Notes under the pieces: generated by a model
What the model was told of the DNA's origin: nothing
Database searches by the model: none
What the model saw: only the letters and a program-made list of their open reading frames with translations
Part shown: one piece after another, positions 2,598 to 19,632 of the stretch
Layout: every line of letters starts with the position of its first letter
How positions within the stretch are numbered: position 1 is the first letter of the stretch
Position numbers and translations under genes: made by a program
Assembly (NCBI GenBank): GCA_963767735.1
Contig: CAVYES010000005.1
Location: forward strand, 448,001-512,000
Length of the DNA: 64,000 nt
Direction: 5' to 3'
Source of the DNA: Candidatus Bathyarchaeota archaeon
GTDB taxonomy: Archaea; Thermoproteota; Bathyarchaeia; Bathyarchaeales; Bathycorpusculaceae

Positions 2598-2610
2598 ATT
2601 AAATTTTAAT
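2598..2610 (+). repeat. Left target-site duplication ATTAAATTTTAAT of the Cas1 element
   Basis: Identical 13-mer at 11080-11092; both copies lie immediately outside the TIRs. Confidence 0.9.
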
Positions 2611-2895
2611 CAAAAAAAAAATAATTGCTTTGTTGATTCCTCATGGAACGATACGAGCATGACCCCAAGAGCCCTCAGGGTTCTGCGCTTCGGAATGACG
2701 AACCATTGCCACTTCGCGCATGTGTTTTTTTTGATTCAGGGCATGCCAGAAAGAACACTGAGCACGTCAAGAAAGGTAGTATATCCTCAGTTCATTAGTA
2801 ATTACTCTCACTTATCATACACTACCTTTGTTTAATTATCATACACTACCTTTGTTCATAACGCCTAACTAAAGAAATTAGGGATATGTGAGGCT
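2611..2895 (+). repeat. Left terminal inverted repeat (285 bp)
   Basis: Reverse complement of 10795-11079, no mismatch found by eye; contains tandem 21-mers TTATCATACACTACCTTTGTT at 2812-2832 and 2836-2856. Confidence 0.95.
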
Positions 2896-3649
2896 ATTAA
2901 GGAAGGCTGACTTGTCGTTGAGTTCTGGGCAAGTCTTAAATCTGAATAGCAAAGAAAGTAGGATAGAGGAAATAAAAACGGAATCAGAAAAAAAGCAATC
3001 AGAAAAAGGCAACTGGGAAAAAACAGCTATTATTATTAGCATAATAAGCTTAATCGTTTCAACGAGTTTGACAGCCGTTATAGCATATACCAGTTATCAA
3101 GTAATAGAAAAGGCTGATAATATAGAAAATAACAGCCTTTTGCTACAAATAATGCAAAATGGCTATACCCCAAAAATTTCTGTGAGTAATCCCCAAATTG
3201 TTGTTCTTCAACAAGAAAATAGCTTATTTGATAATTGGACTTCACCCACTGAATGCTATGGGTGGGTAAATGGTTCAATTAATATCATGACTCCTCAAGT
3301 TGGAACAGTATCCATTAGCATAAGTAATTTCTCAATAAGCGACGATTATTCATACCTCTTACCAGAAAAAACAAATTTAACGATTGTTGAGCCAGTTCCT
3401 TCTTATTATCCCCAAGGTATCAATGATGTATATAATGTAGGTGAGGGTTTAACTGGATACAATTTTAGCCTTCCAATAGAAGCTTCATTTTATCCAAACC
3501 CTGAAAAACTACCTGTCAATACTGACTCTATTTTTCCTATCGGATATCTGCTTCTTAAAGCAAATTTTATCCCTCAAGCGACAAACTTCATACCACAAAC
3601 AGAATATTTTTCGGTAAATATCTTTGTTGACGTAAAGAATTATCCTTGA
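2888..3649 (+). CDS. Membrane-anchored extracellular protein (cargo); true start probably further downstream
   Basis: One TM helix (TAIIISIISLIVSTSLTAVIAY) then an N/S/T-rich domain with many NxS/T sequons. Confidence 0.65.
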   Translation: MRLLRKADLSLSSGQVLNLNSKESRIEEIKTESEKKQSEKGNWEKTAIIISIISLIVSTSLTAVIAYTSYQVIEKADNIENNSLLLQIMQNGYTPKISVSNPQIVVLQQENSLFDNWTSPTECYGWVNGSINIMTPQVGTVSISISNFSISDDYSYLLPEKTNLTIVEPVPSYYPQGINDVYNVGEGLTGYNFSLPIEASFYPNPEKLPVNTDSIFPIGYLLLKANFIPQATNFIPQTEYFSVNIFVDVKNYP

Positions 3650-3710
3650 GAGATTCCAGAGTGCATTAAACGGTTAGGGCTATTACCGAGTACATTCAAG
3701 GGTTAGCGCG

Positions 3711-3770
3711 CTAAGAAAGGCTTGCGATTCGAGGATTCCATTCCTTTATTTCTTCTCGCAAATATTTGGC
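3711..3770 (-). pseudogene. cas1: Relic of a cas1 3' end (AKYLREEIKEWNPRIASLS*)
   Basis: Matches the C-terminus of the intact Cas1 (AKYLREEIPDWNPRIATLVPS*) and has the same TAGCGCGCTA palindrome at its stop. Confidence 0.85.
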
Positions 3771-3854
3771 GTGTGCGTATTGTTTTCAAATTCATAAACC
3801 ATAATTCCATGTGACTTTCAAATTGTACTTTGAAGATAGCGAAGAAGGACTGAG

Positions 3855-4133
3855 CTTAAAACGAAACCCGAGTTATATACTTGCGTTAGTTGCGGAAAGA
3901 ATCATTTAAAATTATCAGAGATTGTTTGGATGAAAGAATATGAAGATGGAGACATTGACTTATCAACTGTTAGATGTGTGTCATGCCATGCGCGATTCTT
4001 GCCTACTACTTTGGTAGGTAAACTTCCTGAAGATGTTTTAAAAACTATAGACAAACCCCTCAAGAAATATGGCAAGAGAGTCAACCGTAATTACGACAGA
4101 AGAACCGTTAGACGAGCGCTGAAGAAGTCGTAA
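3855..4133 (+). CDS. Small zinc-finger protein (CVSC...CVSC), basic C-terminus; start uncertain
   Basis: The frame is open upstream of the listed ATG 3930 and adds a first CVSC (YTCVSCGKNH) to pair with RCVSCH. Confidence 0.5.
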   Translation, partial: LKTKPELYTCVSCGKNHLKLSEIVWMKEYEDGDIDLSTVRCVSCHARFLPTTLVGKLPEDVLKTIDKPLKKYGKRVNRNYDRRTVRRALKKS

Positions 4134-4144
4134 TAGCGCGCTAT

Positions 4145-5185
4145 TCAGGAAGGGACTAACGTAGCTATCCTCGGATTCCAATCAGGTATTTCCTCTCGCA
4201 AGTATTTAGCAAACAGCAAGGCTTCTTCAGCTATCAGCGTCTCTACCTCTTGTCTTTTCCCTACTTTAATCCTCGGGATTTCTACTTTGCTCCTGAAGAA
4301 AAGGCTTAAACTTTTCAGGAACTCGTCATTTTTCGCTCCGTTCAAATATTGTCTCTTGCCTTTTCTATTATTTGAGAAGGCTTCCTCTCTAAGCACGAAG
4401 TCCTTTTCTTTAAGGATTGATGCGTACTGAATAACGAAGTCGTCTACCAAAAATCTGTACAGCTCCTCAAAGTCACACACTAAGGAGGGCTTACCAAACT
4501 GCAAGCTGTGCAGAAAGCCCAAGTATGGTTCAAGCTTAGCTTTGATTAGCGCGGTATGAACGCGCCAAGATAAAACCGTGTAGGCGAGGTCAAGCAGATT
4601 GTTCGTTTTGTCATACGCTTTAAACGTCGTTCTGTTCTTAGGTCTCATGTACTCAGGGAAAAGCTCGAATATTTGCTGGAAGTATTGAGAAGCGCAATGC
4701 CCTTCGATGTTTGTTAAGGTATGCCTGAGGGTACTCAATGATTTAGCTTCTGCGTTCTTTACCTGCTCGTAACAAAAAGGGTCGAGCCTGTGCAAACCGT
4801 ATTTGCTGAGCAGGCTATCCTGTCCTCTTAGCTTGCCAATAAGAAACGCTTTCGCTATGTCAAACGACTTACCACTGGTAAAGGCTTGATACTGAGACAG
4901 CCGATTAAGGACATGAGAAGAATTGTCCAAGCCTACCAGAACGCCTACCGCGTGACCTCTCGCGGTTTCTACAATAAGGTCTATTCCAAAATAACAGCAA
5001 GTAACCAGCGCTCCGCTGCTGACCGCGTTACCTGAACGGATTTCTATTTCACCTATCGTGTTCATGTTTAGCGGGTATTTTCTTTTGTTGCCTTTGAAAT
5101 CCCGAACGAACAGGCAACCTTCTTCTCTGCCCAAAAAATAGCCCGAGCTATCTAAATTTAATTTCTCAGTTTTCGTTCCTTTCAC
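4145..5185 (-). CDS. cas1: Casposase (Cas1-solo integrase)
   Basis: Cas1 catalytic motifs NIEG, LEPYLGFLH, SLVCDFEELYR; lies inside a TIR/TSD element with no other cas genes. Confidence 0.92.
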   Translation of the reverse strand: MKGTKTEKLNLDSSGYFLGREEGCLFVRDFKGNKRKYPLNMNTIGEIEIRSGNAVSSGALVTCCYFGIDLIVETARGHAVGVLVGLDNSSHVLNRLSQYQAFTSGKSFDIAKAFLIGKLRGQDSLLSKYGLHRLDPFCYEQVKNAEAKSLSTLRHTLTNIEGHCASQYFQQIFELFPEYMRPKNRTTFKAYDKTNNLLDLAYTVLSWRVHTALIKAKLEPYLGFLHSLQFGKPSLVCDFEELYRFLVDDFVIQYASILKEKDFVLREEAFSNNRKGKRQYLNGAKNDEFLKSLSLFFRSKVEIPRIKVGKRQEVETLIAEEALLFAKYLREEIPDWNPRIATLVPS

Positions 5186-5308
5186 GCTCTATCCTCCTCC
5201 TTAATAGGGTATATAGTAAAGGGGAGCTATTTTAGCTTTAAACGTCAAAAGGGCTTATTTTTAGCCATATTAGCCGTTTTAGGCGCAATATTGTGGCTAT
5301 TTAGGAGC

Positions 5309-5345
5309 TCGTAGCCTTAAGCTACGAAAAGGCTTTATATAGTAT
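5309..5345. promoter_or_regulatory. Inverted repeat TCGTAGC-N5-GCTACGA next to a BRE/TATA-like AAAAGGCTTTATATA
   Basis: Seen in the AT-rich divergent intergenic region between cas1 and the ATPase. Confidence 0.4.
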
Positions 5346-5641
5346 ATAAGGAGGGTTGGACTTTTTAAACTATTTTTAAGCTCTAAACGTAAAATGACTT
5401 AAAATTCTTCCCCTATTAGCTATATTCATGTTTAAAATAGGCTTATTAGGATAAATTAAGCCCGATTTGTAGACTTCATGGATTTTGAAAAAAGATTTTT
5501 TAACTTGTTTATTTAAAAACGCGGGTATATACTACGAATTTAAGTATTAACGTATAAAAGCCTAAAATAGAACGAACCGAACGTAGAGGTTATAGATAGC
5601 CCGAATTTAGGAGATTAGGGATATGTCAAAGACAATAGGGC

Positions 5642-6493
5642 TTGAACCAATTGAAGAAATTCCTGAGATATTCCCTGTACTCAGGGTTTGTCAAGAACAA
5701 GAAAAGACCCGTATCGGCTTTGATTATGGCGCATCCAGAGAGGGCTAAGAGCACGGAGACTCTCAAGTTCGAAGGTCTTGGGATACTTTACATGACCGAT
5801 TTGACCCACTATGGTCTTATGGAAGAGCTAAAAGACATGCCAGCCGACAAAAGAGAAGCGTTGCATCATCTCGTAATACCTGATTTGGAGAAACTCCGAA
5901 CAAGAGGAAAGAGCGTCAGGGAAGAACTTATGTCTTGCTTTAGGGACTTGACCGAGGAGGGCTTGGGAAGAATGCATACGGGAAAGATAAACGTAAACTT
6001 TGACCCTCCCGTTGTTATGGGCGTTATAGCCTGCACCACTCCAGAAGACATAGGCGACAGGAGAAGCATACTCAGGAACGTAACATTCCTGTCCAGATTT
6101 ATTCCCTTTACTTACGATTACTCAGACCAAATGAAGATAGACATACTTAATTTCGTTGAAAAAGAGGATGAATTGACCGAAAGAAAAGACCAAATAATCG
6201 GAAAGGTGGCAAGAGTCGAATTGCCAGAGAGTTTGGCGGGCGAATTGACAACCTATGCAATTTATCTCGCACATAGAATACAGAAATTCGCTTCTACAAA
6301 ATCTGTAGACGGGAAAGACAGCCTGTTTGGAGTTAGGGCGAAAGAGAACCTTATGACGCTGTTAAAGAGCATAGCGTTGTACAACGGAAACAGAACGGTG
6401 GAGAAGGAAGACTTGAAAGAACTAATGCACCTCTACAAGTACATGAACTTCAATTTTAGGGAGATGGATGACAGAATATTCGGAGGTGAGTGA
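5642..6493 (+). CDS. MCM-clade AAA+ ATPase core without MCM N-terminal domain; possible true start ATG 5623 with a +1 frameshift
   Basis: Walker A-like AHPERAKST, Walker B-like LVIPD, Arg finger FLSRF, sensor-2-like GVRAKENL. Confidence 0.6.
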   Translation: MNQLKKFLRYSLYSGFVKNKKRPVSALIMAHPERAKSTETLKFEGLGILYMTDLTHYGLMEELKDMPADKREALHHLVIPDLEKLRTRGKSVREELMSCFRDLTEEGLGRMHTGKINVNFDPPVVMGVIACTTPEDIGDRRSILRNVTFLSRFIPFTYDYSDQMKIDILNFVEKEDELTERKDQIIGKVARVELPESLAGELTTYAIYLAHRIQKFASTKSVDGKDSLFGVRAKENLMTLLKSIALYNGNRTVEKEDLKELMHLYKYMNFNFREMDDRIFGGE

Positions 6494-6893
6494 GATTGGA
6501 CACAATTCCTGGGCGCGAATTTATGGGGATATTCATGCGAACAAGTATTACATAGACATGAAAGGCGCATACACTCGTGAGGAAATTAATAGAAGGGTCG
6601 AAGCTGCAGAAAAAGCTGCGCTATACCTCGGTCGTCGAGGAGACCTCGACCCTCAAACTGTCCGACAAAGGATAGCCCGTCTGGCGAAATTAAGAAAGGC
6701 TGACATCGGAAGCCGCGCCATCTCGGAAGCGCGAAGGCATCCTGACGGAATGGTAAACCTGACGCTGCATTACGGGCGTGATAAAGCCTTCGGCATGAGA
6801 ATTGACCGCATGCAACGCCTTAGGAGATTGGAAAAGACGCGAAGAGCGGAAAGGATGGAAAGGATGCGGAAAGCAAGGTTCGACAGAGGTTGA
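6468..6893 (+). CDS. Highly basic Arg-rich protein, possibly nucleic-acid binding
   Basis: Composition; overlaps both neighbours in an operon. Confidence 0.6.
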   Translation: MTEYSEVSEIGHNSWARIYGDIHANKYYIDMKGAYTREEINRRVEAAEKAALYLGRRGDLDPQTVRQRIARLAKLRKADIGSRAISEARRHPDGMVNLTLHYGRDKAFGMRIDRMQRLRRLEKTRRAERMERMRKARFDRG

Positions 6894-7198
6894 AAGAAAT
6901 GGTTGACGTAAGCACGCTCTTAATTTCTATGGTAACGGGATTATTCGCTGGAATAGGAACGACTGTCGGAACTTACTTGGCAAACAAGCATCTCGTCGAG
7001 AACATGAAGAAATTAGAGAAGGCTGCAGTCGAAGCCATAAGAGCACCGTTGTTCCAAGCAGAACGCAACGCGGAACCCTTATACCCTAAAGGGTATTCCC
7101 AAAGACGCATCAGGAATACCCGTAGTAAATTCCCTTATCACGTTACTCGCCCAGAAAAGCGCGGTCATCCCCGTAAGGTTATTGAACACACTCGATAG
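6890..7198 (+). CDS. Small membrane protein (N-terminal TM, basic tail)
   Basis: LLISMVTGLFAGIGTTVGTYLA; GAGGT RBS-like site; coupled to the upstream ORF. Confidence 0.6.
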   Translation: MKEMVDVSTLLISMVTGLFAGIGTTVGTYLANKHLVENMKKLEKAAVEAIRAPLFQAERNAEPLYPKGYSQRRIRNTRSKFPYHVTRPEKRGHPRKVIEHTR

Positions 7199-7224
7199 AG
7201 TACGCTTTAGGTTGGTGTCAAGTT

Positions 7225-7383
7225 TTGGACTTATTCGGAAGTGCTATAGCGATAGCGCTTATCCTTGTATTTTTCATCATGGCGCTTGGGTATATCGGCT
7301 TTGATAGAGTAGGGCAAGCCCTTCGCTCGCTCTGGGAAGCCTTTAGTGCAATATGGGTTATTCTTTTTGGAACATCCCCGTAA
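7225..7383 (+). CDS. 52-aa hydrophobic membrane protein (MDLFGSAIAIALILVFFIMALGYIGFDRVGQALRSLWEAFSAIWVILFGTSP)
   Basis: Hand translation, TTG start, below the ORF-track cutoff; fills the gap in the operon. Confidence 0.55.
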   Translation: MDLFGSAIAIALILVFFIMALGYIGFDRVGQALRSLWEAFSAIWVILFGTSP

Positions 7384-7534
7384 AGGCAGATGCGAGATTT
7401 TGCTTAAAAGGTTGGAACATACTCGGAAGAGTATAGCCGAATGGGGAAAACGAAATGAAATAGAAAGCCTGATTGTAGTCGTCGTACCCGTCGCGGTTTT
7501 TATCGTGGTAATTTTCTTGGCGAAATGGTTGTGA
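7346..7534 (+). CDS. Small protein with C-terminal TM helix; start probably near 7400
   Basis: SLIVVVVPVAVFIVVIFLAKWL. Confidence 0.5.
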   Translation: MQYGLFFLEHPRKGRCEILLKRLEHTRKSIAEWGKRNEIESLIVVVVPVAVFIVVIFLAKWL

Positions 7535-7540
7535 GTCCTT

Positions 7541-7684
7541 ATGGACATATCCAGCATATTCGGTACATTACTCGGGGCAGGCATTCTTGTTGCTTTCATA
7601 ATCTACGTTATGGTGAAGATAGGAATTTTGGGCAGGTTCGTTCGCGCTGTTAGCTCGCTCTTGCATTTAATATTCGGGGATTAA
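7541..7684 (+). CDS. 47-aa hydrophobic membrane protein (MDISSIFGTLLGAGILVAFIIYVMVKIGILGRFVRAVSSLLHLIFGD)
   Basis: Hand translation, ATG start; pattern resembles the 7225-7383 ORF. Confidence 0.55.
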   Translation: MDISSIFGTLLGAGILVAFIIYVMVKIGILGRFVRAVSSLLHLIFGD

Positions 7685-7686
7685 CA

Positions 7687-7959
7687 ATGCCACAGAAATA
7701 CTGGATAAAAGAAAAACTTGGATGTAATGAGCGGTGGGATTGTTCTCGCTGCGCAAAAATGCTGTCTTGTCTGGATAAGGCTATGGGAAAGCCAGATTGC
7801 GAAGAGCCCGAAGCAGAAGTAGAAACGAAGCCTAAAGAAACAACCCCAAAGAATAAACCCAGAAAGGAACCTGACAGCGATTTTAAAAAGTCACGAGGTT
7901 GCAAACGGGTTATTAAATGCAATTGCTGTAGGGAATTTTTCGTTAACTGCTTTCCTTAA
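7687..7959 (+). CDS. Cys-rich small protein with two similar Cys clusters
   Basis: GCNERWDCSRCAKMLSC and GCKRVIKCNCCREFFVNC separated by an E/K/P-rich linker. Confidence 0.55.
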   Translation: MPQKYWIKEKLGCNERWDCSRCAKMLSCLDKAMGKPDCEEPEAEVETKPKETTPKNKPRKEPDSDFKKSRGCKRVIKCNCCREFFVNCFP

Positions 7960-7979
7960 TGAATGAGGAGGTGATAAGG

Positions 7980-8021
7980 ATGGCAAAAGCACCAAAAAGA
8001 AACCCGAAAAGAAACATGTAA
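7980..8021 (+). CDS. 13-aa basic micro-ORF MAKAPKRNPKRNM
   Basis: Strong GGAGGTGA RBS just upstream. Confidence 0.3.
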   Translation: MAKAPKRNPKRNM

Positions 8022-8028
8022 GTGAACC

Positions 8029-8286
8029 AAGCGAAAGCTCCTCAAAGGCTTAGGGTTTTCCATTCGGGAATACCCAAAGAACTTTTGGGAATACCCTGTA
8101 GGGTAAAACCCCAAGGCTCAGAATGAAGGCGCTCCTCACCTAAGCGCGTACTCAGAGTAGCCATTGCTGCCAGCTATTCGGTACTGCGCAGTCGCGCTTG
8201 GAGCGTGAGGAGCCGAGGTTTCGCTTAGGTTTTTCCACATCCTCGTTGAAAGATGCGGCTCAAGGTTTTCTCACCTCGTCTTTCAA
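8029..8286 (+). ncRNA. Candidate structured RNA (multibranch plus 3' hairpin)
   Basis: Nested stems 8029-8040/8215-8226, 8049-8059/8105-8115, 8073-8079/8083-8089, 8131-8139/8205-8213, 8142-8148/8193-8199, 8155-8161/8173-8179, 8246-8255/8277-8286; several G-U pairs on the + strand. Confidence 0.55.
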
Positions 8287-8377
8287 GCCTTCCTGAAATG
8301 CCCCTTACTGAGAAATCTGTGTCCCTCACTACATATAACACTAAGAAGTCTTAAATCTGAAATAATACTATGACTAA

Positions 8378-8728
8378 ATGGTGAATGTTATGAGTAGAAT
8401 ACCAGAATTTGAAATAAAGGATAGCGAAAACTTCAAAATCATTTACTCTACAGGTGTATTTGGCGGTCTTGCGCCAAATGACGGAAGAATGGTTTTGTAT
8501 ATAGATTTGCTGAAAACAAAACCAGTTAGAGGAGAACCTGGAAAGGAAGAACTTGACAAAATTGTTAGGGAAAGGGAAGTTGAAATTCACCTGTCACCAG
8601 CAACTTGGAAAAGTATTGCAAAATGGATGACCGCGCATGTAGAGCAACTTGAAAAAGTTTATGGAAAAATACCTGAAGAACCAAAAAGTATCATTCCACA
8701 AACACAATCTGGAAATCCTATCGTTTAG
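8378..8728 (+). CDS. DUF3467-like small protein
   Basis: FKIIYSTGVFGG...EREVEIHLSPATWKSIAKWM pattern. Confidence 0.55.
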   Translation: MVNVMSRIPEFEIKDSENFKIIYSTGVFGGLAPNDGRMVLYIDLLKTKPVRGEPGKEELDKIVREREVEIHLSPATWKSIAKWMTAHVEQLEKVYGKIPEEPKSIIPQTQSGNPIV

Positions 8729-8738
8729 ATGGTCTTTT

Positions 8739-9299
8739 TTGAGTTTCAAAGTTTATATTTCTTCTGACTGCAACGACACGTTCTTTGTTAACAATGTACT
8801 TGGAGTTAACAATGTACTTGGAGCGATTCAAGAGAAAAGTGAAGAAATTCGCAACGCTATAGGCATAGAAATCCATCCAATCTATCCACCAAGACAAGCC
8901 ACAACTGGGATGACTGTTGAAGATAAGATAGCCCAAATAAGAGATTCGGCTTTAGTTATTATGAACATTACTCCAAGAATCATTGCAACTGAGTATGTTG
9001 TTAATTCTGGTGTTCTTATAGAATATGGGATTGTATTAGGTTTAGGCATAGCTGATAATCTCTGCATCCTATGTAATCAAGAATTTGAAAGAGCCCGACT
9101 GTCGCCGATTTTTCATGGTCATGACATTTAACAATTCATACAGACTACTGAAGGAACAGAATTAAAAAACATCATAAAAAATATTCTAAGTAATCACATC
9201 GCCAAGATTGTCCAAAGAAGCAGCCAACTTGCTCAAAGTGATAGGATTAAGCAAGATTTCATAGAAGAGCAAATAAGGTCAGCGAGCAACGCCACATAA
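8739..9299 (+). pseudogene. Nucleoside 2-deoxyribosyltransferase/TIR-like fold protein with an in-frame TAA at 9129-9131
   Basis: IRDSALVIMNITP...NSGVLIEYGIVLGLG; the same frame continues 55 codons past the stop. Confidence 0.5.
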
Positions 9300-9315
9300 C
9301 GGGAGTCATAAAAAG

Positions 9316-9393
9316 TCAGATTGTTGGGATTCTTGGATTCCTGTCTTTCCGTTCGTTTATCGAATACTTCGCAAACAACAGAGCCTCTTCACT
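9316..9393 (-). pseudogene. cas1: Second relic of a cas1 3' end (SEEALLFAKYSINERKDRNPRIPTI*)
   Basis: EEALLFAKY identical to the intact Cas1 and NPRI conserved in register. Confidence 0.8.
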
Positions 9394-9516
9394 AAGGCTT
9401 CACCATACCATTTTTGTTCTGCTTACGCAGAACCTCTTTTCGGGTCTACCCTTCTCCCGCCCTTACTGCACTACACGCGCTAAAGGGTACGCCTTCCTGA
9501 ACAACGCTTTTAGCGT

Positions 9517-10062
9517 TTACTGAAAAACCAGAGGTAGTATTTTTGCGCCTTGTGGTATTACAAGTGGTTTTACGTCATTGATGATGTTAGCTGTCTTAGC
9601 CTCTATAGGAGTTAAAGTCTTTGCTTCGAGAAACATCTCTTTGACTTTATCCGAATCAAGTTTCGAGTTTGCGACAATAATGTCAGTTATTAGTTTTTGG
9701 TCTCGTTCAATGCTCAGTAAGCCCTCTTTGATTTGTTTTTCATCAAATCTCGCTTGCTGTAATATGTTCAAAGCTACGCCATGAAATAGAAATGATGAGT
9801 TTGGAACAGCATATCTTTCGGTACCAGCTAATAATACAATATTGGCGATTGAGTCAACTATCCCGATATTGAACGTTATAGTTTTTATTGGAAGCGACTT
9901 GATGTAGTTGAATAATGTAATTCCACTGTTTGTCGCTCCTCCAGGTGAAGACAGCATTAGACAAACCTCTTTTTCACCTATGTTTACTTGTTCTGCCAAG
10001 ACACTCATTAGAGTTTGAGAAGTCTTACCATCGATTCCTGCGTGGAAATTAATAAACAACAT
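9517..10062 (-). CDS. Stand-alone ClpP/crotonase-like serine protease
   Basis: LSSPGG, catalytic DSIA (Ser), FLFH (His). Confidence 0.75.
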   Translation of the reverse strand: MLFINFHAGIDGKTSQTLMSVLAEQVNIGEKEVCLMLSSPGGATNSGITLFNYIKSLPIKTITFNIGIVDSIANIVLLAGTERYAVPNSSFLFHGVALNILQQARFDEKQIKEGLLSIERDQKLITDIIVANSKLDSDKVKEMFLEAKTLTPIEAKTANIINDVKPLVIPQGAKILPLVFQ

Positions 10063-10190
10063 TGGATTAGCTCCTTATTCTACTTTGAATTGCCTTTGCA
10101 TATAAGTTTATGCACTACCCGATACCGTAAAGTTACCCATAACAAACCTTAAGCCAACTTCTTCTAATACCGTCTTTCGAGGGATTAAGG

Positions 10191-10700
10191 ATGCCCAATG
10201 AAGAAATCAACAAAACAAAACAGAAAATTATAGAATGGTTAAAGGAAGAGGGATTCTCGGCAGAAGAAAAACAAGACCCAAATGCTTACTTTAATATTCA
10301 AGCAACAAAAGGCAGAATAAATGTGAACATTATCCAAAACCCACCTTTCAATGATAGTATCTTCATTGGTGGAAACATCGCCGTTGCTCCAGAACAACAA
10401 GCGCTTCTGAAATCAAGGAGTCGAGATAAAAGGGAAGATTTCATTTGGGATTTACAAATGAGCCTCGCAGCGAACAATGAATTAGGCGATTTTGCGCTAA
10501 AACCCAATCCACCTGACGATATACAAACCATTTTTGTTTCCTCTCGGAGAATCTACTATGATGAACTGACTAAAGGGAAACTCTTTACTTCAATCAATAT
10601 TGTCATGAAAAACATCATATTGACTATTTGGAAACTGCAAAAATTTGTTGGAATGCATATGCCCAAAACGCCTGCAACAAAGCAAGATTATTCTACGTAA
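10191..10700 (+). CDS. DUF2299-like archaeal protein
   Basis: IIEWLKEEGF...REDFIWDL...IYYDELTK pattern. Confidence 0.6.
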   Translation: MPNEEINKTKQKIIEWLKEEGFSAEEKQDPNAYFNIQATKGRINVNIIQNPPFNDSIFIGGNIAVAPEQQALLKSRSRDKREDFIWDLQMSLAANNELGDFALKPNPPDDIQTIFVSSRRIYYDELTKGKLFTSINIVMKNIILTIWKLQKFVGMHMPKTPATKQDYST

Positions 10701-10794
10701 AGTAATGCCCTTTCTTTCTTAATTGATAGAATACCTGAAGGTCTTCTTCTTTCTTTAGGTGGTACACATTCTTCAGGTTGCTGAATGCCTGAAC

Positions 10795-11079
10795 AGCCTC
10801 ACATATCCCTAATTTCTTTAGTTAGGCGTTATGAACAAAGGTAGTGTATGATAATTAAACAAAGGTAGTGTATGATAAGTGAGAGTAATTACTAATGAAC
10901 TGAGGATATACTACCTTTCTTGACGTGCTCAGTGTTCTTTCTGGCATGCCCTGAATCAAAAAAAACACATGCGCGAAGTGGCAATGGTTCGTCATTCCGA
11001 AGCGCAGAACCCTGAGGGCTCTTGGGGTCATGCTCGTATCGTTCCATGAGGAATCAACAAAGCAATTATTTTTTTTTTG
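10795..11079 (-). repeat. Right terminal inverted repeat (285 bp)
   Basis: Reverse complement of 2611-2895. Confidence 0.95.
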
Positions 11080-11092
11080 ATTAAATTTTAAT
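11080..11092 (+). repeat. Right target-site duplication ATTAAATTTTAAT
   Basis: Identical to 2598-2610. Confidence 0.9.
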
Positions 11093-11459
11093 CCAACCAA
11101 CCAACGAAAAAGTAAGGAAAAGTTAGACCTTTTTGAAAAGGTTGCAGGTGTTACTCAGTTCGGCATAGGCATATCACATAAGGTTAAGGTATAGTATGTG
11201 TAGTATCGGAATCGAGTAAACACTCAAAACTATGGAAAAAATAAGAAAAAATAAAGGAAAAAGAGATAAGGGTTCTGGTAACTTCGTTGGATAGTTTTTC
11301 GGTGTAAACTGTCTTGGGATATTTTTCTCGGTGTTAAGTTTCATGGGACACTTGTTTATGTGTTAATTTATATATATATATATAGATTATTAAGAGAAGC
11401 TATATTAGCTCCCCAATGGATACTCTCTGCTTCCGAACATAAGTAGAGGTGAAAAAAGA

Positions 11460-11648
11460 ATGCTTTCAAGAGATTGCGATGGCTGCTCAATGCTTAAGGC
11501 ATGCAGTGTACGATACAAAAAAACTTTAAAAGGTGACAAAGTCTACTGCCCAGACGGAACAGCACACCTGATTGACTGTGACAGCATAAAGCAAAGCACC
11601 GATATAATCTGTGTCTTTGAAGCGAGTCAATTAATCGAAAAAACTTAA
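11460..11648 (+). CDS. Small Cys-rich hypothetical protein
   Basis: GAGGTG RBS; CDGC and YCPDG motifs. Confidence 0.55.
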   Translation: MLSRDCDGCSMLKACSVRYKKTLKGDKVYCPDGTAHLIDCDSIKQSTDIICVFEASQLIEKT

Positions 11649-11833
11649 AGATTAGCGACTAAACAGAAAAACTGAAAAAAAATCAAAAAACCATAATTGC
11701 CCCTTAAGCTGTTTTTGCAGCGTTTTGTATTAGTGTTTTCCATTTGTTTTCGCCTTCGATTGTTATTTCACATGCTCACTCGGAGTTTTGCCGTCTAAGG
11801 CTTCTGTGCGGTTTTTTAGTGATTTAAAACCTT

Positions 11834-12058
11834 TCAGCGGAAAACCGTGCAGTCATTTGCTTCTCTCATCGTTAACCCGTGTTTGAGGGCAAAATTAGTT
11901 AAGAGGGTTTTTTCGCTGTTTCCGACAAGCCATTTAACGTGTAGTTCCCAATCTTGCGATTTTTCAGCCTGTACTGTATACACTATAGGTGTGCCTTTCA
12001 CCGTTTCAAAGATAACCAACAACTCATCAAGTATTGAAAGAGCCTCTTCTCTATTCAT
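11834..12058 (-). CDS. Small hypothetical protein, likely paralog of 13362-13613
   Basis: MNREEALSILDEL...ALKHGLTMRE vs MKREEAVAIYKEI...AKSHNLAVRE. Confidence 0.55.
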   Translation of the reverse strand: MNREEALSILDELLVIFETVKGTPIVYTVQAEKSQDWELHVKWLVGNSEKTLLTNFALKHGLTMREANDCTVFR

Positions 12059-12184
12059 AATCCGCAATATATGCGGAACTAATTTAAAGATTTTTGGAAT
12101 GCGGTTAAAAAAAATTACTTCTCAGCGTGGAATTGCAATTTTCTATCTTGTATCACACTCAAGCGCGCGCAACTATTAAATTGC

Positions 12185-12355
12185 TCATTCTTTTGCCTCA
12201 ATGATTAATCGCCAATCTGTTATCGTAAGCTCTAGGTGTTGTCCATCATTCCAGCCTAATTCGTTGACTGCCTCTTCTGGAATGACTATTACATGTTTGT
12301 ATTGACGTTTGTCCTTGTCCTTGTAATCAAGTTGCTTCTGGAGTTTAGATTTCAT
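12185..12355 (-). CDS. AbrB/MazE/SpoVT-type small DNA-binding protein (56 aa)
   Basis: Hand translation: ...YKHVIVIPEEAVNELGWNDGQHLELTITDWRLIIE; GAGGA RBS. Confidence 0.65.
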   Translation of the reverse strand: MKSKLQKQLDYKDKDKRQYKHVIVIPEEAVNELGWNDGQHLELTITDWRLIIEAKE

Positions 12356-12596
12356 TTTTGGGATTCCTCAAATTTGTAAATCAAGAGGAAACAAATACGT
12401 GATAGGGTACATTCTTTTTCTTTAACCAACAATGTTTACTTCCAGCTTCAATTGTTAAACATGAAAAGCTATTATGAAGGTTTGTGGGCACAAAAAGAGG
12501 CAACAAACGTTCAGAATCACAAATAGACGAATTTTTACATCAAAAATAAAGTAAGTCTTAAATCTGCGCGTCGCGCAGTTGAAAATTTACCATTTA

Positions 12597-12950
12597 TTAT
12601 GTCGATTTGACAAACGAGCTTTTTTCCTTAACTGAGTGTAGGTATACCTGTGGAATTTTATAGCTGATGGTGTTTGCGTAATTTTTTTGACTGGTACACA
12701 CCTCAACGCTAATTTCTTTATCATCTGAATCTTCCGAAGGATTACTAACAAAGAGTATGTCCATGTTTCCTATACGAAAGTGTAAGTGAGCTCCTTTAGC
12801 TTTCTCTAATAATAAAATTACTGTATTCATTTGTTGCTGGCTCAAGCCTAATGCTATCCGAATATCATCTAGAAAAGTAATTATATTCTTTGCAGATGCG
12901 GTAACCAAAGGAGATTTTTCCTTCAACATTCTAATCATCCGTGAGGTCAC
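12597..12950 (-). CDS. Hypothetical protein
   Basis: 117-aa ORF, no recognised motif. Confidence 0.4.
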   Translation of the reverse strand: MTSRMIRMLKEKSPLVTASAKNIITFLDDIRIALGLSQQQMNTVILLLEKAKGAHLHFRIGNMDILFVSNPSEDSDDKEISVEVCTSQKNYANTISYKIPQVYLHSVKEKSSFVKST

Positions 12951-13233
12951 GTTTCACAGTGTTTTCAATTTAAGCTTTATGAAGTTGAGATTAATTACGG
13001 AATCGCATCCTTTGAATTTATTTCCACAGTAATTCTAATAGGTGTCTTATTGAATTCTCCTTGCAAATCCACAGTGTACCTTGTCCCATTTCGTCTTTTT
13101 GTCTCTTGTGGTTATTAAGCGCGGCGCGCTGAAAACATATATCCAAATTGGATGCGTTCTATTGTTGCGACAAGATGTTACACCAAATACTAATATCGTC
13201 ATGAAGCAAGACTTAAGGTGAGGCGTCATCCGA

Positions 13234-13359
13234 GTGGCTGAATGCCCTTACTGCCATAATGAAGTTTCTAAAACTCAGGCTAAATTACAGAACAGCTTCT
13301 TCACAATCGAAACCTTCACATGTGATAGATGCGGAAGAAGATTCACTGTAACAAAATAA
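13234..13359 (+). CDS. 41-aa zinc-ribbon microprotein (CPYC...CDRC)
   Basis: Hand translation, GTG start after AGGTGAGG. Confidence 0.55.
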   Translation: MAECPYCHNEVSKTQAKLQNSFFTIETFTCDRCGRRFTVTK

Positions 13360-13361
13360 CT

Positions 13362-13613
13362 CTATTCTGTTTTTTTGGGTTTGTAGACTATTACTTCGCC
13401 TTTCTCTTCTCGCACAGCTAAGTTATGTGATTTAGCGATATGGACAATCTGTTCTTTGACTGAGCCATCTGATAACATTGTAATACATATTTGATAGCCT
13501 TCTGAGGTTGGGTCACCTATTTTCGATAACTTTAGGTTAAAGGAGTTTGACCCCATGTGTTCACCTAAATTCAGGATTTCTTTATAGATAGCGACTGCTT
13601 CCTCTCTCTTCAC
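13362..13613 (-). CDS. Small hypothetical protein (83 aa)
   Basis: GTG start MKREEAVAIY; similar to 11834-12058; the upstream part of the listed 224-aa ORF is IS antisense. Confidence 0.55.
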   Translation of the reverse strand: MKREEAVAIYKEILNLGEHMGSNSFNLKLSKIGDPTSEGYQICITMLSDGSVKEQIVHIAKSHNLAVREEKGEVIVYKPKKTE

Positions 13614-13710
13614 GTGCTTCCCCAAGTTCGCTACCTGCGTACAAACTATTAAACTTGTGTAGCTGTAAACGTCCAGCAACAGAGCGGCTGCTATATTCAA
13701 ATCAAGCGCG

Positions 13711-14812
13711 CTGGCTTGTCCCTTAATTAAGTAAACGTTTATTTTTGAGTTGGGGCCTCGTTTCAAATGAGTTACGTCCAAGCTTAGGAGGTGACCCCAA
13801 GCGGGACAAGATGAACACGAGACCCTAGAAACCCTCTTCAGAAACGTAGACTTAAGTTTTGCTAAAGCAGCCTTACTCGACTGCTTCCATTCCGATGGTC
13901 CAGGAAGACCCCCCAGAAACCCAATGGGACTTTTCAGAACCTTCATCGTTATGCGCATGAAGGGCGTTCGCAGCCTAAGAGAAATGACCAGACTACTCGA
14001 CGCAGACCCAAGACTTAGACGATTGTGCCTCATCAAACCAGCCGAAAAAGGTTACCCACGAAGCGTTCTCAGCAGGTTCATCCGCAAAGTTGGAGAAATC
14101 CGCCTCATTAACATAATAGACGAGAAAGTTGTTAAGCTCTCGAAACACAGCAGTGCAAGAGACGTTGATTCCATTTTTGATGCTTCCTTTATAGATGCGT
14201 GGAGTACACGTGATCCACTGGACAACCAGACCGGCTATTCAGACAAGGAAGCCAGAGTCGGACGCGCAGGCAGATCATTCGGACTCGGCTACAAGCTGCA
14301 CTTAGCTATCGATTCTGCGACTATGCTTCCTTTAGCCTGCATTTTTGCTTCGGCTAATCAGAACGAGCAGAAACACTCATTGAACCTGCTGGAGAAGACC
14401 AAGCTGATTCTCAAGCAGTCTGAGGCTAAATTGAGAAGTGTGATAGCTGACAGCCAGTACAGCGACGGCAAACTCAGAGACGCTGTCGACGCTGCGGTGA
14501 TACCGTATCGTTCAAACCAGAAACGGGACGTTAAGGGCTTGCTGAGAGTGGACAAGAAGTTTCGAGCCTATGGACCGGAAGAACAGAAGAAGGAGTACCA
14601 CAAAAGACCTCATGTAGAGGCAGTCTACAGCTTCCTAAAGACACAGTACAGCCTAACCGTCAATAAAGTAAGAGGCTTAGGCAACGTAGCTTCATATGCG
14701 CTCTTTAGCATTCTATGCTTAGTTCTGAACCGAGAGGCGGCAGAAAACTTCGGAAGATACGATAAAGCAGTCTCACCAACATACTTCAACACGTAATATC
14801 GGGACAAGGCAG
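13711..14812 (+). mobile_element. Insertion sequence (DDE, IS5/IS1182-like), ~1.1 kb
   Basis: Ends CTGGCTTGTCCC and GGGACAAGGCAG (11/12 inverted match) flanked by CGCG; exact ends are ambiguous because CGCG is palindromic. Confidence 0.8.
13801..14796 (+). CDS. DDE transposase; frame open to a GCG codon after GGAGGTGA, first ATG at 13924
   Basis: GRPP N-terminal motif, IFDASFI, GYKLH, IADSQY, YHKRPHVEAVYSFLK. Confidence 0.85.
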   Translation, partial: AGQDEHETLETLFRNVDLSFAKAALLDCFHSDGPGRPPRNPMGLFRTFIVMRMKGVRSLREMTRLLDADPRLRRLCLIKPAEKGYPRSVLSRFIRKVGEIRLINIIDEKVVKLSKHSSARDVDSIFDASFIDAWSTRDPLDNQTGYSDKEARVGRAGRSFGLGYKLHLAIDSATMLPLACIFASANQNEQKHSLNLLEKTKLILKQSEAKLRSVIADSQYSDGKLRDAVDAAVIPYRSNQKRDVKGLLRVDKKFRAYGPEEQKKEYHKRPHVEAVYSFLKTQYSLTVNKVRGLGNVASYALFSILCLVLNREAAENFGRYDKAVSPTYFNT

Positions 14813-15189
14813 CGCGGGGTAACTTTTCTTATATTTTTTACCCCTAATGCCATTATTTTAATTAATTTACGAGGGGTAACTTTTACTGAACTTCTTACTC
14901 CTCATACCAATACCTAACTACAATATACCTTAGTGACCTATCAAAAGTCTTTACCTAACGTTATTTTTTTTTATTAAAATTTAATCCCACATGCATTTCA
15001 GCAATTTTACTTCGAACACCAAGCCATATGTTGCGAGCGCGCGAATATATATTTTTCAATTTTTGGCTGTGATTATGCACATACACCGTTTTCACATTCT
15101 TCATAAAGTCTTCTTCTCATCCTTAACACAAATCTTAACAAAGAAAAGATGTGAGAGGTTGAAAACGATTAAGACGGCTACGACTTAAG

Positions 15190-17814: not shown

Positions 17815-17887
17815 AGCCCGGTGGTGTAGTGGTCAAGCATAGGGGCCTCTGGAGCCTCTGACGAGAGTCCGAATCTCTCCCGGGCTA
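17815..17887 (+). tRNA. tRNA-Gln(CTG), integration target
   Basis: Acceptor AGCCCGG/CCGGGCT, anticodon arm GGGGC-CTCTGGA-GCCTC, T arm GAGAG-TCCGAAT-CTCTC; TATA-like TTATAATA ~30 nt upstream. Confidence 0.93.
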
Positions 17888-19263
17888 CTTTGTCCCAGGC
17901 GTGAATTCATACTTTTTTGACCTTGACTCTCGCAAATTTCTTTGATCATCTGTTGCTTTAAAACAGCCGTTAGTTGTGTCAGTTGAGTTTGTTCTAGTTG
18001 AGCTCGGTCTATGACTGTTATGTTGGATTGGGATAGTGCTTCTCTTGACATGACTTGGTCGGGGTTAAGTCCCCATGCGCGAATCATTTCTTTGAGGGCT
18101 TCAAGTTTGTTTAGGCGAGTTTTCGGTTTTATGCTTAGTCCTGAGGAGATGTATACGCCGCGGAGGTATTCTATGCCTTTCATGCGTATGTCGTGATAAG
18201 TGCTGATTGTGTGCCCCATCATGTATTCGATGTAATCGGTTTGAATGCTAAGTGATGCTAGTTGCGTGCGGAAGTATTTGCGAATGCTGTGAGCTCTTAG
18301 GTCATAGCGTCTTCCTCGAGGGTTGCTGGTGACTAGTCCTGCTTTGACGTAGAGGTTGTGGACAACTGAGTGAATTCTGCCTGTTGTTATTGATTTGGCA
18401 AGGTTGCTTTGTCCATCGCGTATTAATGGTGAGTTGTCGTGGATAATTTCTGGGTGTTTTCGTCCTGTTGGGCTGCCTTGTCTTCGTAAGTCCAAGTAGG
18501 CTTTGAGATATTCGGCTGCTTCCTGGTTTAGGAATGTGTCGTAGTCGTGATATTTGCCCTTGGTTATCTCTGATTCGACATGTACGTGGATTGGGATTAT
18601 GCCTTTTTCTAGGTCGCGTTTGACATGGCGATACTGCAGCTTGGATAGAGTGCCGATGCGAAATCCGCCTAACGCCAGTAGCGATATTATTACCCGTTCG
18701 CGTAGATCGGCTAAGTCGAGCATTTTTTGCAGCTCGTCAGGTGCTGGTGCTCTGTCTTCGTAGATGCTTCTTTTACTCAGATTGTATGGAAGTTCAAGTT
18801 TTAGTCCGTTGCAGCGGAATAATGCTTTGACGCCTTTAACGTGATTGCTTATGGTTCCTGGTGCCAAGTTTTCGGCTTGCAGGTTGGCGACGAAGTCATC
18901 TAGCATTCGGCTGGTCTGCGAAAGAGCTTTTGGTTTTGGGTCGCCGTCTTGGTCTTGGCAGGCTTTGACAAGTTGGTCGGGTTGGGTGTTTGTCCATAGG
19001 CTGAATCGGTGGACGCCGTAGATGTATTGGTAGAGGGTTGCTGGGCTTCCTGTTCTGTGACGTAAGAGGTGTTTTGCTAGTTCTATAGTCGTGGTGTTTT
19101 GGAAGGTTAAGGTTACGAGGCTTGGCATTCTGGTTAGTAATGCGTCGATTATGTATTGTTGGAGTTTTTTGTCTGCGGCTGTCTCTGCTTCAGGCAAGGT
19201 GAGAGTTAGTGGTTTTTGCAGTTTGTGACCTCGGGAGCTCTCCGTTATAATTACGGTTTTCAT
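17833..19263 (-). CDS. int: Tyrosine recombinase/integrase; C-terminus encoded antisense to the tRNA
   Basis: GGFRIGTL (Arg), HSIRKYF (HxxR), YMMGH...TY (catalytic Tyr); GGGAG RBS before ATG 19263. Confidence 0.9.
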   Translation of the reverse strand: MKTVIITESSRGHKLQKPLTLTLPEAETAADKKLQQYIIDALLTRMPSLVTLTFQNTTTIELAKHLLRHRTGSPATLYQYIYGVHRFSLWTNTQPDQLVKACQDQDGDPKPKALSQTSRMLDDFVANLQAENLAPGTISNHVKGVKALFRCNGLKLELPYNLSKRSIYEDRAPAPDELQKMLDLADLRERVIISLLALGGFRIGTLSKLQYRHVKRDLEKGIIPIHVHVESEITKGKYHDYDTFLNQEAAEYLKAYLDLRRQGSPTGRKHPEIIHDNSPLIRDGQSNLAKSITTGRIHSVVHNLYVKAGLVTSNPRGRRYDLRAHSIRKYFRTQLASLSIQTDYIEYMMGHTISTYHDIRMKGIEYLRGVYISSGLSIKPKTRLNKLEALKEMIRAWGLNPDQVMSREALSQSNITVIDRAQLEQTQLTQLTAVLKQQMIKEICESQGQKSMNSRLGQSSPGEIRTLVRGSRGPYA

Positions 19264-19632
19264 TTGTTTGCTCCCGTTCCTGTTTTTGTTTGGAGTTTTT
19301 CGCTTCTTTGGCTGAAGCGCATACTCTGCTTTACCTGTAGTTTCTTGAGAATTTAAGTGCCACTTTAAACTTTCTTGTAGTGGTAGCTTGCGGATTTCGA
19401 TGATGCAGCTCTTTAAAATAATTAGTCCGTTGCTTTGACCGCTGCATAGTTCAGCGTTGGGCATTGTTCTGTCGTGCTCGACGAGAATTATTTCGCTGTT
19501 TTCTTTCGATAACCAGCCGATGGTTTCCCTCTGCATTGCTTCTTCCATGGGTTGCTGAATGTTTTTGAAGAGAACGTGATCTTTATAGCGGATATAAACG
19601 GGTGAACCCAAGGAAAAAGCAAGAGAAGTCAC
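19264..19632 (-). CDS. Accessory protein in frame with the integrase, no intervening stop
   Basis: VYIRYKDHV...ETIGWL...IILKSCIIEI small beta domain; GAGGT RBS. Confidence 0.5.

Follow-up and report, generated by a model that had tools for sequence, protein, structure and literature searches.

A strongly folded non-coding segment downstream of the core operon of a Cas1 element in a Bathyarchaeota archaeon: candidate 3’ tail of the operon RNA

What is the function of the highly structured non-coding segment at positions 8029-8286, which lies directly behind the core operon of a Cas1-encoding element in a Candidatus Bathyarchaeota archaeon? The window, that is, the whole stretch of DNA analysed here, is 64 kb long, and all positions refer to it unless a contig is named. 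According to the original prediction, the segment is a functional RNA (regulatory, antitoxin, packaging or Cas1/ATPase cofactor) or a folded ssDNA origin.

The Cas1 element and the position of the segment

The host element carries the 14-nt direct repeat ATTAAATTTTAATC at both tips (Table 1). In addition to Cas1 and the AAA+-like ORF283 it contains ORF141, ORF102, three small ORFs which appear membrane-like in their translations, the Cys-rich ORF90, a micro-ORF, ORF116, ORF160, a ClpP-like gene and DUF2299. The match of ORF116 to DUF3467 is below the threshold (23.9 vs 25 bits). No PolB was found in the element. Judged by its sequence, it looks like a casposon-type transposon without PolB. The related element L031 has the same GATTAAAWTTTAATCC tip motif and the same GGTTGGTTGG flank, and a Pfam scan of its 10 ORFs revealed no PolB.

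We call ORF283 an ATPase because K36, D81 and R152, which occupy the Walker-A, Walker-B and arginine-like positions, are kept in its homologs. Profile matches in PDB and Pfam are weak (AAA_16, AAA_22, AAA-lid domains, MCM and RuvB-like lids; E 0.0004-0.1), and a structure model was unusable (mean pLDDT 40.8). Relatives of ORF283 were found in 23 of 301 family genomes, and at 16 of the 26 loci examined they are located beside Cas1. No second ORF283 match exists elsewhere in the genome. A second Cas1 homolog (50% identity) is encoded on contig C5 (32874-33902), and a third, distant one (27%) on contig C10, beside a CRISPR array of at least about 28 repeats.

Two observations concern the region upstream of ORF283. 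The sequence ATGTCAAAGACAATAGGG (5623-5660) is conserved directly ahead of this gene in 4/4 aligned relatives. Its ATG and the 283-aa ORF of the window, which starts at TTG 5642, are in different frames, indicating a frameshift, an error in sequencing or a true start at another position. Further, the divergent region between Cas1 and ORF283 (5186-5641) is AT-rich (33% GC) and has many short palindromes, for example GGCTTATTTTTAGCC and AGCTATTTTAGCT. The sequence of this region is itself not conserved; in L031, L035, L036, L037 and L070 the most stable 200-nt window is located just upstream of the start of the ORF283 homolog or overlaps it, on the strand of this gene only. The region is a candidate operator, origin or 5’ leader.

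The segment is located between the core operon, which extends from ORF283 to ORF90 and includes the micro-ORF, and a promoter-like box upstream of ORF116. The 13-aa micro-ORF and its GGAGGTGA ribosome binding site were found as originally described; of the 11 start contexts considered for plus strand ORFs of the element, this is the only one with a strong Shine-Dalgarno (SD) sequence. The box, (G)ATAAGTCTTAAATCTG, is present in 14 copies in the genome, including those at 2932-2944, 8347-8359 and 12554-12566 in the window. An ORF of at least 40 aa starts not more than 120 nt downstream of nine of the 14 copies, and in seven of these nine cases the distance is 25-61 nt. The recurrent box is likely a strong consensus archaeal promoter; here and below, archaeal promoters and terminators were assigned by eye according to consensus. 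Since ORF116 has its own promoter-like box, the segment is not the leader of ORF116.

Table 1. Features of the segment and its surroundings (positions in the window; P, pair probability)
Feature	Position	Strand	Remarks
Host Cas1 element, 8.5 kb	2598-11092	.	305-nt TIRs at 99% (2598-2902, 10788-11092)
Cas1	4145-5185	-	Pfam E 2.2e-46
AAA+-like ORF283	5642-6493		weak profile matches
Inverted duplicate of arm B in 3’ end of ORF102	7079-7135	+	57 nt, 70% complementarity; first 25 nt 23/25
GGAGGTGA, Shine-Dalgarno-like, complementary to 16S rRNA 3’ end (GGAUCACCUCCU)	7966-7973	+
A-rich micro-ORF, 13 aa (MAKAPKRNPKRNM)	7981-8022	+	minus strand reads T3-T5 runs
Y-shaped fold, 53% GC	8029-8226	.	closing stem, arm B and arm A
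15-nt direct repeat GCTTAGGGTTTTCCA	8048-8062	+	copy 2 at 8223-8237 (14/15), degenerate copy 3 at 8258-8272
GGGAATACCC twice (8066, 8087; 21 nt apart), then palindrome TACCCTGTAGGGTA (8092-8105)	8066-8105	+
T5 run 3 nt past closing stem; possible plus strand termination signal	8230-8234	+	read from sequence
Hairpin C, stem UUGAAAGA/UCUUUCAA, with UCACCUCG (8271-8278) on its 3’ side	8246-8286	+	P 0.95
Stretch with CCUUCCUGAA, predicted to pair with SD/AUG region 7964-7984	8287-8307	+	P 0.68-0.99
Promoter-like box AGTCTTAAATCTG	8347-8359	+	31 nt upstream of ORF116 ATG

Several other features of the window were recorded. The convergent ORF160 and ClpP-like gene are separated by a second structured stretch (9300-9540; z of about -3 to -4 for either strand, based on only 12 shuffles), which probably serves as a terminator in both directions, and inside ORF160 (8787-8822) the 18-nt sequence GTTAACAATGTACTTGGA is present as a perfect tandem duplication of two copies. 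Two adjacent radical-SAM/SPASM genes (119-2326) are located in the left flank of the element. To its right, a third end-like copy (a T-run with ATTAAAATTTAAT) at 14959-14986 suggests, at the sequence level, that 11079-14986 may be a further element in tandem, now decayed, which used the same insertion site; an insertion sequence with a DDE_Tnp_1 transposase (13924-14796) is found inside this region. Further downstream, tRNA-Gln(CTG) directly adjoins a 599-aa tyrosine integrase gene on the opposite strand (17815-19632), which probably marks the edge of a further integrated element.

Fold and repeats of the segment

The claimed architecture of a closing stem enclosing two long arms was borne out. 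In the MFE folds the same 12-nt stem (8029-8040/8215-8226) forms with 11 of 12 pairs (92% complementary), and it encloses arm B at 8044-8120 and arm A at 8128-8216. For plus strand RNA of the region 7950-8345, the closing stem has a pair probability of 0.99, arm A one of 0.98-0.99 and arm B one of 0.77. The separate hairpin described downstream also exists (hairpin C in Table 1); its pair probability on the minus strand of the window is 0.00.

The stability of the folds was compared to 200 dinucleotide shuffles per stretch and strand, as had been proposed originally. The region 8029-8286 has an MFE of -96.1 kcal/mol on the plus strand (z -3.83) and of -103.9 kcal/mol on the minus strand (z -6.03), and 200 of 200 shuffles were beaten on both strands. 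The corresponding values for the Y domain (8029-8226) are -83.0 kcal/mol (z -4.41) on the plus and -83.6 kcal/mol (z -5.78) on the minus strand, and with DNA parameters -48.0 (z -5.75) and -44.9 (z -5.36), respectively; in each case 0/200 shuffles were as good. Since the z-scores for RNA and for DNA are both near -5, the energy cannot separate RNA from ssDNA.

How exceptional is this fold? When the MFE was regressed on GC for 638 windows of 200 nt covering the whole 64 kb, the region 8101-8300 ranked first on both strands. In a coarse scan of the element (160-nt windows, 12 shuffles), z was below -3 in 8 of 107 windows, and therefore z alone is not unique to the segment. It is the full-length fold together with the GC-adjusted rank which distinguishes the segment from the rest. 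The GC content is 51-53% for the whole segment, 40% for the element and 34-41% for the flanks.

G-U wobbles had been reported on the plus strand. They are indeed present there, but they are not specific to it: the MFE folds of 8029-8300 contain 4 such pairs on the plus and 10 on the minus strand. Folded in isolation, the part 8227-8300 is no better than shuffles on the plus strand (z -0.30) and forms three other hairpins on the minus strand (z -3.66). The reading of the T5 run behind the closing stem as a termination signal is based on the archaeal oligo-T terminator rule. A generic terminator scan, which considers loops of 3-8 nt only, revealed no site on the plus strand and one on the minus strand, at 8147-8129. 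On plus strand RNA, the predicted helix between 7964-7984 and 8287-8307 closes a domain of ~345 nt. Two alternative pairings were rejected. Pairing of the SD with UCACCUCG (15/18 complementarity) has an ensemble probability of 0.00, the SD being paired with 8287-8307 instead, and for a ‘switch’ pairing between 8037-8043 and 8207-8213 it is 0.00-0.05.

The segment is made up of internal repeats. Exact copies of the 15-nt repeat were found nowhere else in the genome, and the shorter GCTTAGGKTTTTCCA is located at 8048 and 8223. The motif GGGAATACCC, when up to one mismatch is allowed, has four copies within 1 kb, compared to 1.9 expected per 64 kb. Its second pair, at 7091/7112, is inverted and also shows a distance of 21 nt. 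The equal spacing at both loci is due to a single 57-nt duplication and not to independent iterons. TACCCTnnAGGGTA is present at two places only in the 3.04-Mb genome, in arm B and in the duplicate in ORF102, and GCTTAGGKTTTTCC has no further occurrence in the 3.04 Mb outside the element. L035, a relative with which the window is otherwise collinear, lacks the ORF102 region (6891-7202) and with it the inverted duplicate of arm B; from the sequence comparison, this looks like a recent insertion or deletion.

Known families and related elements

We found no known family to which the segment could be assigned. With Rfam 15 at gathering thresholds, the only hit in the whole window was the tRNA at 17815-17887, so that the Rfam check suggested originally yielded no family for the segment. 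Searching 7500-8800 at E up to 10 resulted in four matches with E of at least 2.2 and 13.7-18.5 bits, while the cut-offs are 40-79. A tRNA/tmRNA search revealed none in the segment, and only ORFs of up to 52 aa overlap it. When the segment was compared by tblastx with the spacer at the corresponding position of the relative L038, E was above 0.1 throughout, and stop codons were present within several of the listed matches.

The segment is present in one full copy in the 3.04-Mb genome, next to a 25-nt partial copy at 7079-7103; being single-copy, it is not a MITE or dispersed repeat. A CRISPR array was rejected on the basis of the irregular repeat spacings (175, 35 and 21 nt), and the array repeat on contig C10 is unrelated. 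In type III antitoxin RNAs (ToxI-like), near-identical repeats of ~36 nt are arranged in tandem, immediately ahead of the gene of an endoribonuclease toxin. Here only two copies 36 nt apart, at 8227 and 8263, were found; they are 75% alike, and ORF116 is preceded by its separate promoter box. No toxin-like neighbour was detected either, and the antitoxin role is unsupported. The same is true of the proposed ssDNA origin, the segment being GC-rich and not AT-rich, which is atypical of an origin. With respect to an iteron-type origin or a centromere-like site, repeats 21 nt apart are present, and no initiator or partition protein was recognised in the element.

A guide or bridge RNA (IS110 bridge RNA, TnpB/IscB omega RNA) was also considered and rejected, as complementarity to the element ends does not reach 10 nt. 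No words of at least 10 nt, in either orientation, are common to 7960-8380 and the TIR tips, their flanks or the third tip copy, and neither a TnpB nor an IS110 gene is present inside the element. Absence of the segment from the other Cas1/ORF283 elements examined argues in the same direction. The same results bear on the cofactor of Cas1 or the ATPase envisaged in the original prediction, a role which appears unlikely because the segment is missing from most related elements.

Four metagenome contigs encode ORF283 at 80-93% identity. The contig L035 is collinear with the window and ends 7 nt into the segment. Over the 99 nt ahead of the segment its identity is 81%, compared to 70% over the coding stretch 7202-7715. 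The start and the SD of the micro-ORF are kept in L035, and a 1-nt indel alters frame and stop. Because of this shift the peptide is not conserved.

The only relative which covers the position of the segment is the metagenome contig L038. At the protein level it and the window are collinear: it encodes homologs of ORF141 (36%), ORF47 and ORF90 (31%), and it harbours a spacer of 339 nt at the position of the segment. The most stable windows of the L038 contig fall in this spacer, which folds with -110.6 kcal/mol on the plus strand (z -4.45) and -97.4 kcal/mol on the minus strand (z -2.88). The Y shape is absent from this spacer, in which nothing corresponds to arm A and the shared blocks take up a different topology. 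These blocks are short and collinear, and comprise AAUACCCU-loop-AGGGUAA, GGUUUUCC, hairpin C and CCUUCCUGAA. In the shared hairpin UUGARAGA...UCACCUCG.CUYUCAAG (L038 2436-2469) seven pairs are kept, one of them by a compensatory change from A-U to G-C, the covariation thus comprising a single pair in two sequences. The spacing within the palindrome is 2 nt in the window and 6 nt in L038.

The similarity of the two spacers on the same strand was reached by shuffled sequences in 11 of 500 cases for the local score and in 4 of 300 for the chained score (p about 0.01-0.02). The reverse-complement control does not stand out (67/500 local, 141/300 chained). A global MAFFT alignment of the spacers was not meaningful, since only short blocks align. 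In the elements L070 and L079 the layout of Cas1, ORF283 and ORF141 is the same and no long spacer follows the core operon; therefore elements of this family can do without the segment.

Broader searches revealed no further relatives of the segment. A covariance model of hairpin C (R1), run against 27 sources with 363 kb, recovered only its two training sequences, the next best hit having E of at least 2.2. Nothing usable was found among 61 relatives, and 332 family genomes including G000 (331 others) yielded only chance-level matches of 19-45 nt; of three such matches inspected, none resembles the segment and two looked coding by eye. Plasmid and phage collections, queried with the segment and with ORF283, contained no usable homolog, and neither an ORF283 search of genome contigs nor an ORF283 profile search of viral contigs gave anything usable. 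The pattern TCACCTCG..CTYTCAAGYCT had 23 matches in genome contigs (0 archaeal) and one in viral contigs, which we took as chance. Contigs of 4 runs from 4 studies yielded 13 pieces, all with 0 differences to the window, and the segment itself is identical in contigs of 3 studies, which probably represent the same strain. With 0 differences, these contigs offer no variation usable for covariation analysis. A search for sequencing runs with this DNA listed 15 DNA runs and no RNA run.

Possible functions and comparison with known systems

The general notion of a functional folded nucleic acid thus gains from the strong fold, the non-coding GC island and the structured spacer of L038 with its shared hairpin, while the specific roles assigned to it are unsupported. 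As the best explanation we tentatively propose, at somewhat less than an even chance, that the segment forms a folded and untranslated 3’ tail on the plus strand RNA of the core operon, a tail which would terminate, stabilise and insulate this RNA and possibly sequester the start of the micro-ORF. If so, the segment would also mark where the conserved core (ORF283 to ORF90 and the micro-ORF) gives way to variable cargo. A transcript starting in the promoter region of ORF283 would proceed through ORF90 and the micro-ORF into the GC-rich Y domain, where the closing stem and U5 (8230-8234) may stop or pause it and shield its 3’ end. The core operon would thereby be insulated from the separate consensus promoter of ORF116. 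In addition, the helix between 7964-7984 and 8287-8307, together with the UCACCUCG/CCUC motifs, which are 16S-tail-like, could hold the SD and AUG of the micro-ORF in a paired state.

We favour the 3’ tail because hairpin C forms on the plus strand in the window and in L038 and not on the minus strand of the window, because L038 clearly prefers the plus strand, and because the segment comes after a plus strand operon, with T5 following the closing stem. The extreme fold, the GC island (0.53 vs 0.40) and the lack of coding conservation are in line with it. Similarly, the spacer of L038, at the same place, folds better on the plus strand and resembles the segment on the same strand above the level of shuffles. 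Pairing of the SD and AUG with P 0.68-0.99, and a lead-in which is 81% identical in L035 vs 70% for coding DNA, also speak for this explanation. Against the 3’ tail, the minus strand of the window folds better (z -6.03 vs -3.83) and has more G-U pairs (10 vs 4), and 8227-8300 is structured on the minus strand only. The Y shape is missing in L038, where the similarity is weak and the covariation amounts to a single pair in two sequences. Further, L070 and L079 have no such spacer, and the generic scan found no plus strand terminator. Archaeal termination is not known to need such a structure, and a multi-branch domain of 270 nt far exceeds what termination would require.

Two further explanations have to be weighed. 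The folds obtained with RNA and with DNA parameters do not differ in significance, and no conservation of the fold is seen. The first one, which we regard as unlikely, is a role at the DNA level. The cluster of repeats and palindromes, with GGGAATACCC (four copies in the element), TACCCTnnAGGGTA (two) and GCTTAGGKTTTTCCA (two), could be a platform bound by a regulator, a partition or a replication protein, or an attC-like hairpin or cruciform recombination site at the junction of core and cargo. The motifs are specific to the element, TACCCTnnAGGGTA and GCTTAGGKTTTTCC being found nowhere else in the 3.04 Mb, and GGGAATACCC with up to one mismatch is clustered well above expectation (4 in 1 kb vs 1.9 in 64 kb). 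Copies in both orientations, one of them within a coding region, are tolerable for a DNA site. The folds with DNA parameters are as significant as those of RNA (z -5.75 and -5.36), and the genes directly downstream differ between the window and L038. However, the segment is GC-rich, and the AT-rich region 5186-5641, filled with palindromes, is more origin- or operator-like. The change of the palindrome spacer from 2 nt in the window to 6 nt in L038 is awkward for a dimeric protein binding to dsDNA, the equal 21-nt distances stem from the one 57-nt duplication and not from independent iterons, and no recognisable DNA-binding or initiator protein was identified in the element, which also contains no tyrosine recombinase.

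The second explanation, likewise unlikely in our estimate, is that the segment has no function and is a harmless by-product of local duplications, an inversion and a GC-rich palindrome that was inserted into a rapidly evolving spacer. In line with this, the segment consists of internal repeats and an inverted duplicate of ORF102 sequence, arm A has no counterpart in L038, no homolog was found in the 331 other family genomes, in plasmids or in phages, and L070 and L079 do without such a spacer. But the spacers of the window and of L038 are both, independently, outliers in stability, and their collinear short blocks persist though the flanking proteins are only 31-36% identical. The compensatory pair in hairpin C, the lead-in, whose conservation in L035 exceeds that of the adjacent coding DNA, and the identical sequence in contigs of 3 studies (though probably from the same strain) also speak against a by-product.

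An independent sRNA of ~300 nt from the minus strand, acting in trans or as a protein-binding RNA, is kept in consideration because the energetics and the G-U counts in the window favour this strand; we consider it quite unlikely. Such an sRNA would start from a TATA-like TTATATGT near 8341-8334, run through three hairpins (8300-8227) and the Y domain, and end at T-runs at about 8016-7990, which are the complement of the A-rich micro-ORF. On this strand the MFE is lower (-103.9 vs -96.1 kcal/mol, z -6.03 vs -3.83), 8227-8300 is structured (z -3.66 vs -0.30), and G-U pairs are more frequent (10 vs 4). The peptide of the micro-ORF is not conserved in L035, and its A-rich nucleotides (T-rich on the minus strand) are about 80% conserved. 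Further, the ORF102 duplicate (23/25) is oppositely oriented, and thus a minus strand RNA would bear the motif in the sense of the ORF102 mRNA, and both would show the same UACCCUnnAGGGUAUUCCCAAA hairpin. On the other hand, L038 favours the plus strand by 13 kcal/mol, and for hairpin C, the sole structure supported by comparison, P is 0.00 on the minus strand of the window. The putative promoter and terminator of the sRNA were assigned by eye on the basis of consensus, and the SD-like CGAGGUG motifs of this strand are not followed by a start codon at a suitable distance.

Last, a structured nucleic acid working with the Cas1/AAA+-ATPase machinery, either as an RNA scaffold or regulator of transposition or as an attC-like site for the exchange of cargo, is very improbable in view of the lack of complementarity to the ends, the absence from most relatives and the Y fold not being conserved in L038.

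Returning to the 3’ tail, the segment resembles the 3’ UTRs and hairpin-oligo-U regions of archaeal operons in its location at the operon end, its GC-rich stem with U5 within 3 nt, and the separate promoter which follows. It differs from them in being far larger, with a three-way junction of roughly 200 nt and extra hairpins, and in having conserved single-stranded CCUC/UCACCUCG motifs and an SD which is predicted to be paired. With the small regulatory and antisense RNAs of plasmids and transposons it shares that it is non-coding, strongly folded, element-specific and complementary (23/25) to the 3’ end of ORF102; unlike them, it has no Rfam match and is not conserved across the element family. 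It is also comparable to integron attC sites in being an imperfect palindrome at a junction with variable downstream genes. In attC sites, which are folded single-strand recombination sites, structure and not sequence is conserved, and between the window and L038 structure is likewise better conserved than sequence. In contrast to integrons, there is no integron integrase and there are no repeated cassettes here, the only tyrosine integrase (17833-19632) being located outside the element.

Alone, the segment is a lineage-restricted structured spacer, a candidate ncRNA or terminator in the mobile element of an uncultured soil or sediment archaeon. A narrow literature search, too narrow for claiming that such a case is unpublished, gave no description of a PolB-less Cas1/ATPase element or of a casposon ncRNA, and the word ‘non-coding’ has 0 occurrences in the available part of the article by Krupovic et al. 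2014 (PMC4046053). The context is more valuable than the segment: an element without PolB in which Cas1 is paired with a divergent AAA+-like ATPase, and whose ends have 305-nt TIRs and a 14-nt direct repeat. If the Cas1/ORF283 family is a working transposon, this bears on the use of the Cas1 integrase outside CRISPR and classical casposons, and any RNA or DNA site controlling its core operon would gain relevance. Casposons are Cas1-encoding self-synthesizing transposons (Krupovic et al. 2014, PMC4046053). The host element is similar to them in its long TIRs, its Cas1 homolog and the 14-nt direct repeat at its tips, and differs from them in that neither it nor L031 has PolB and that a divergent AAA+-like ATPase accompanies Cas1.
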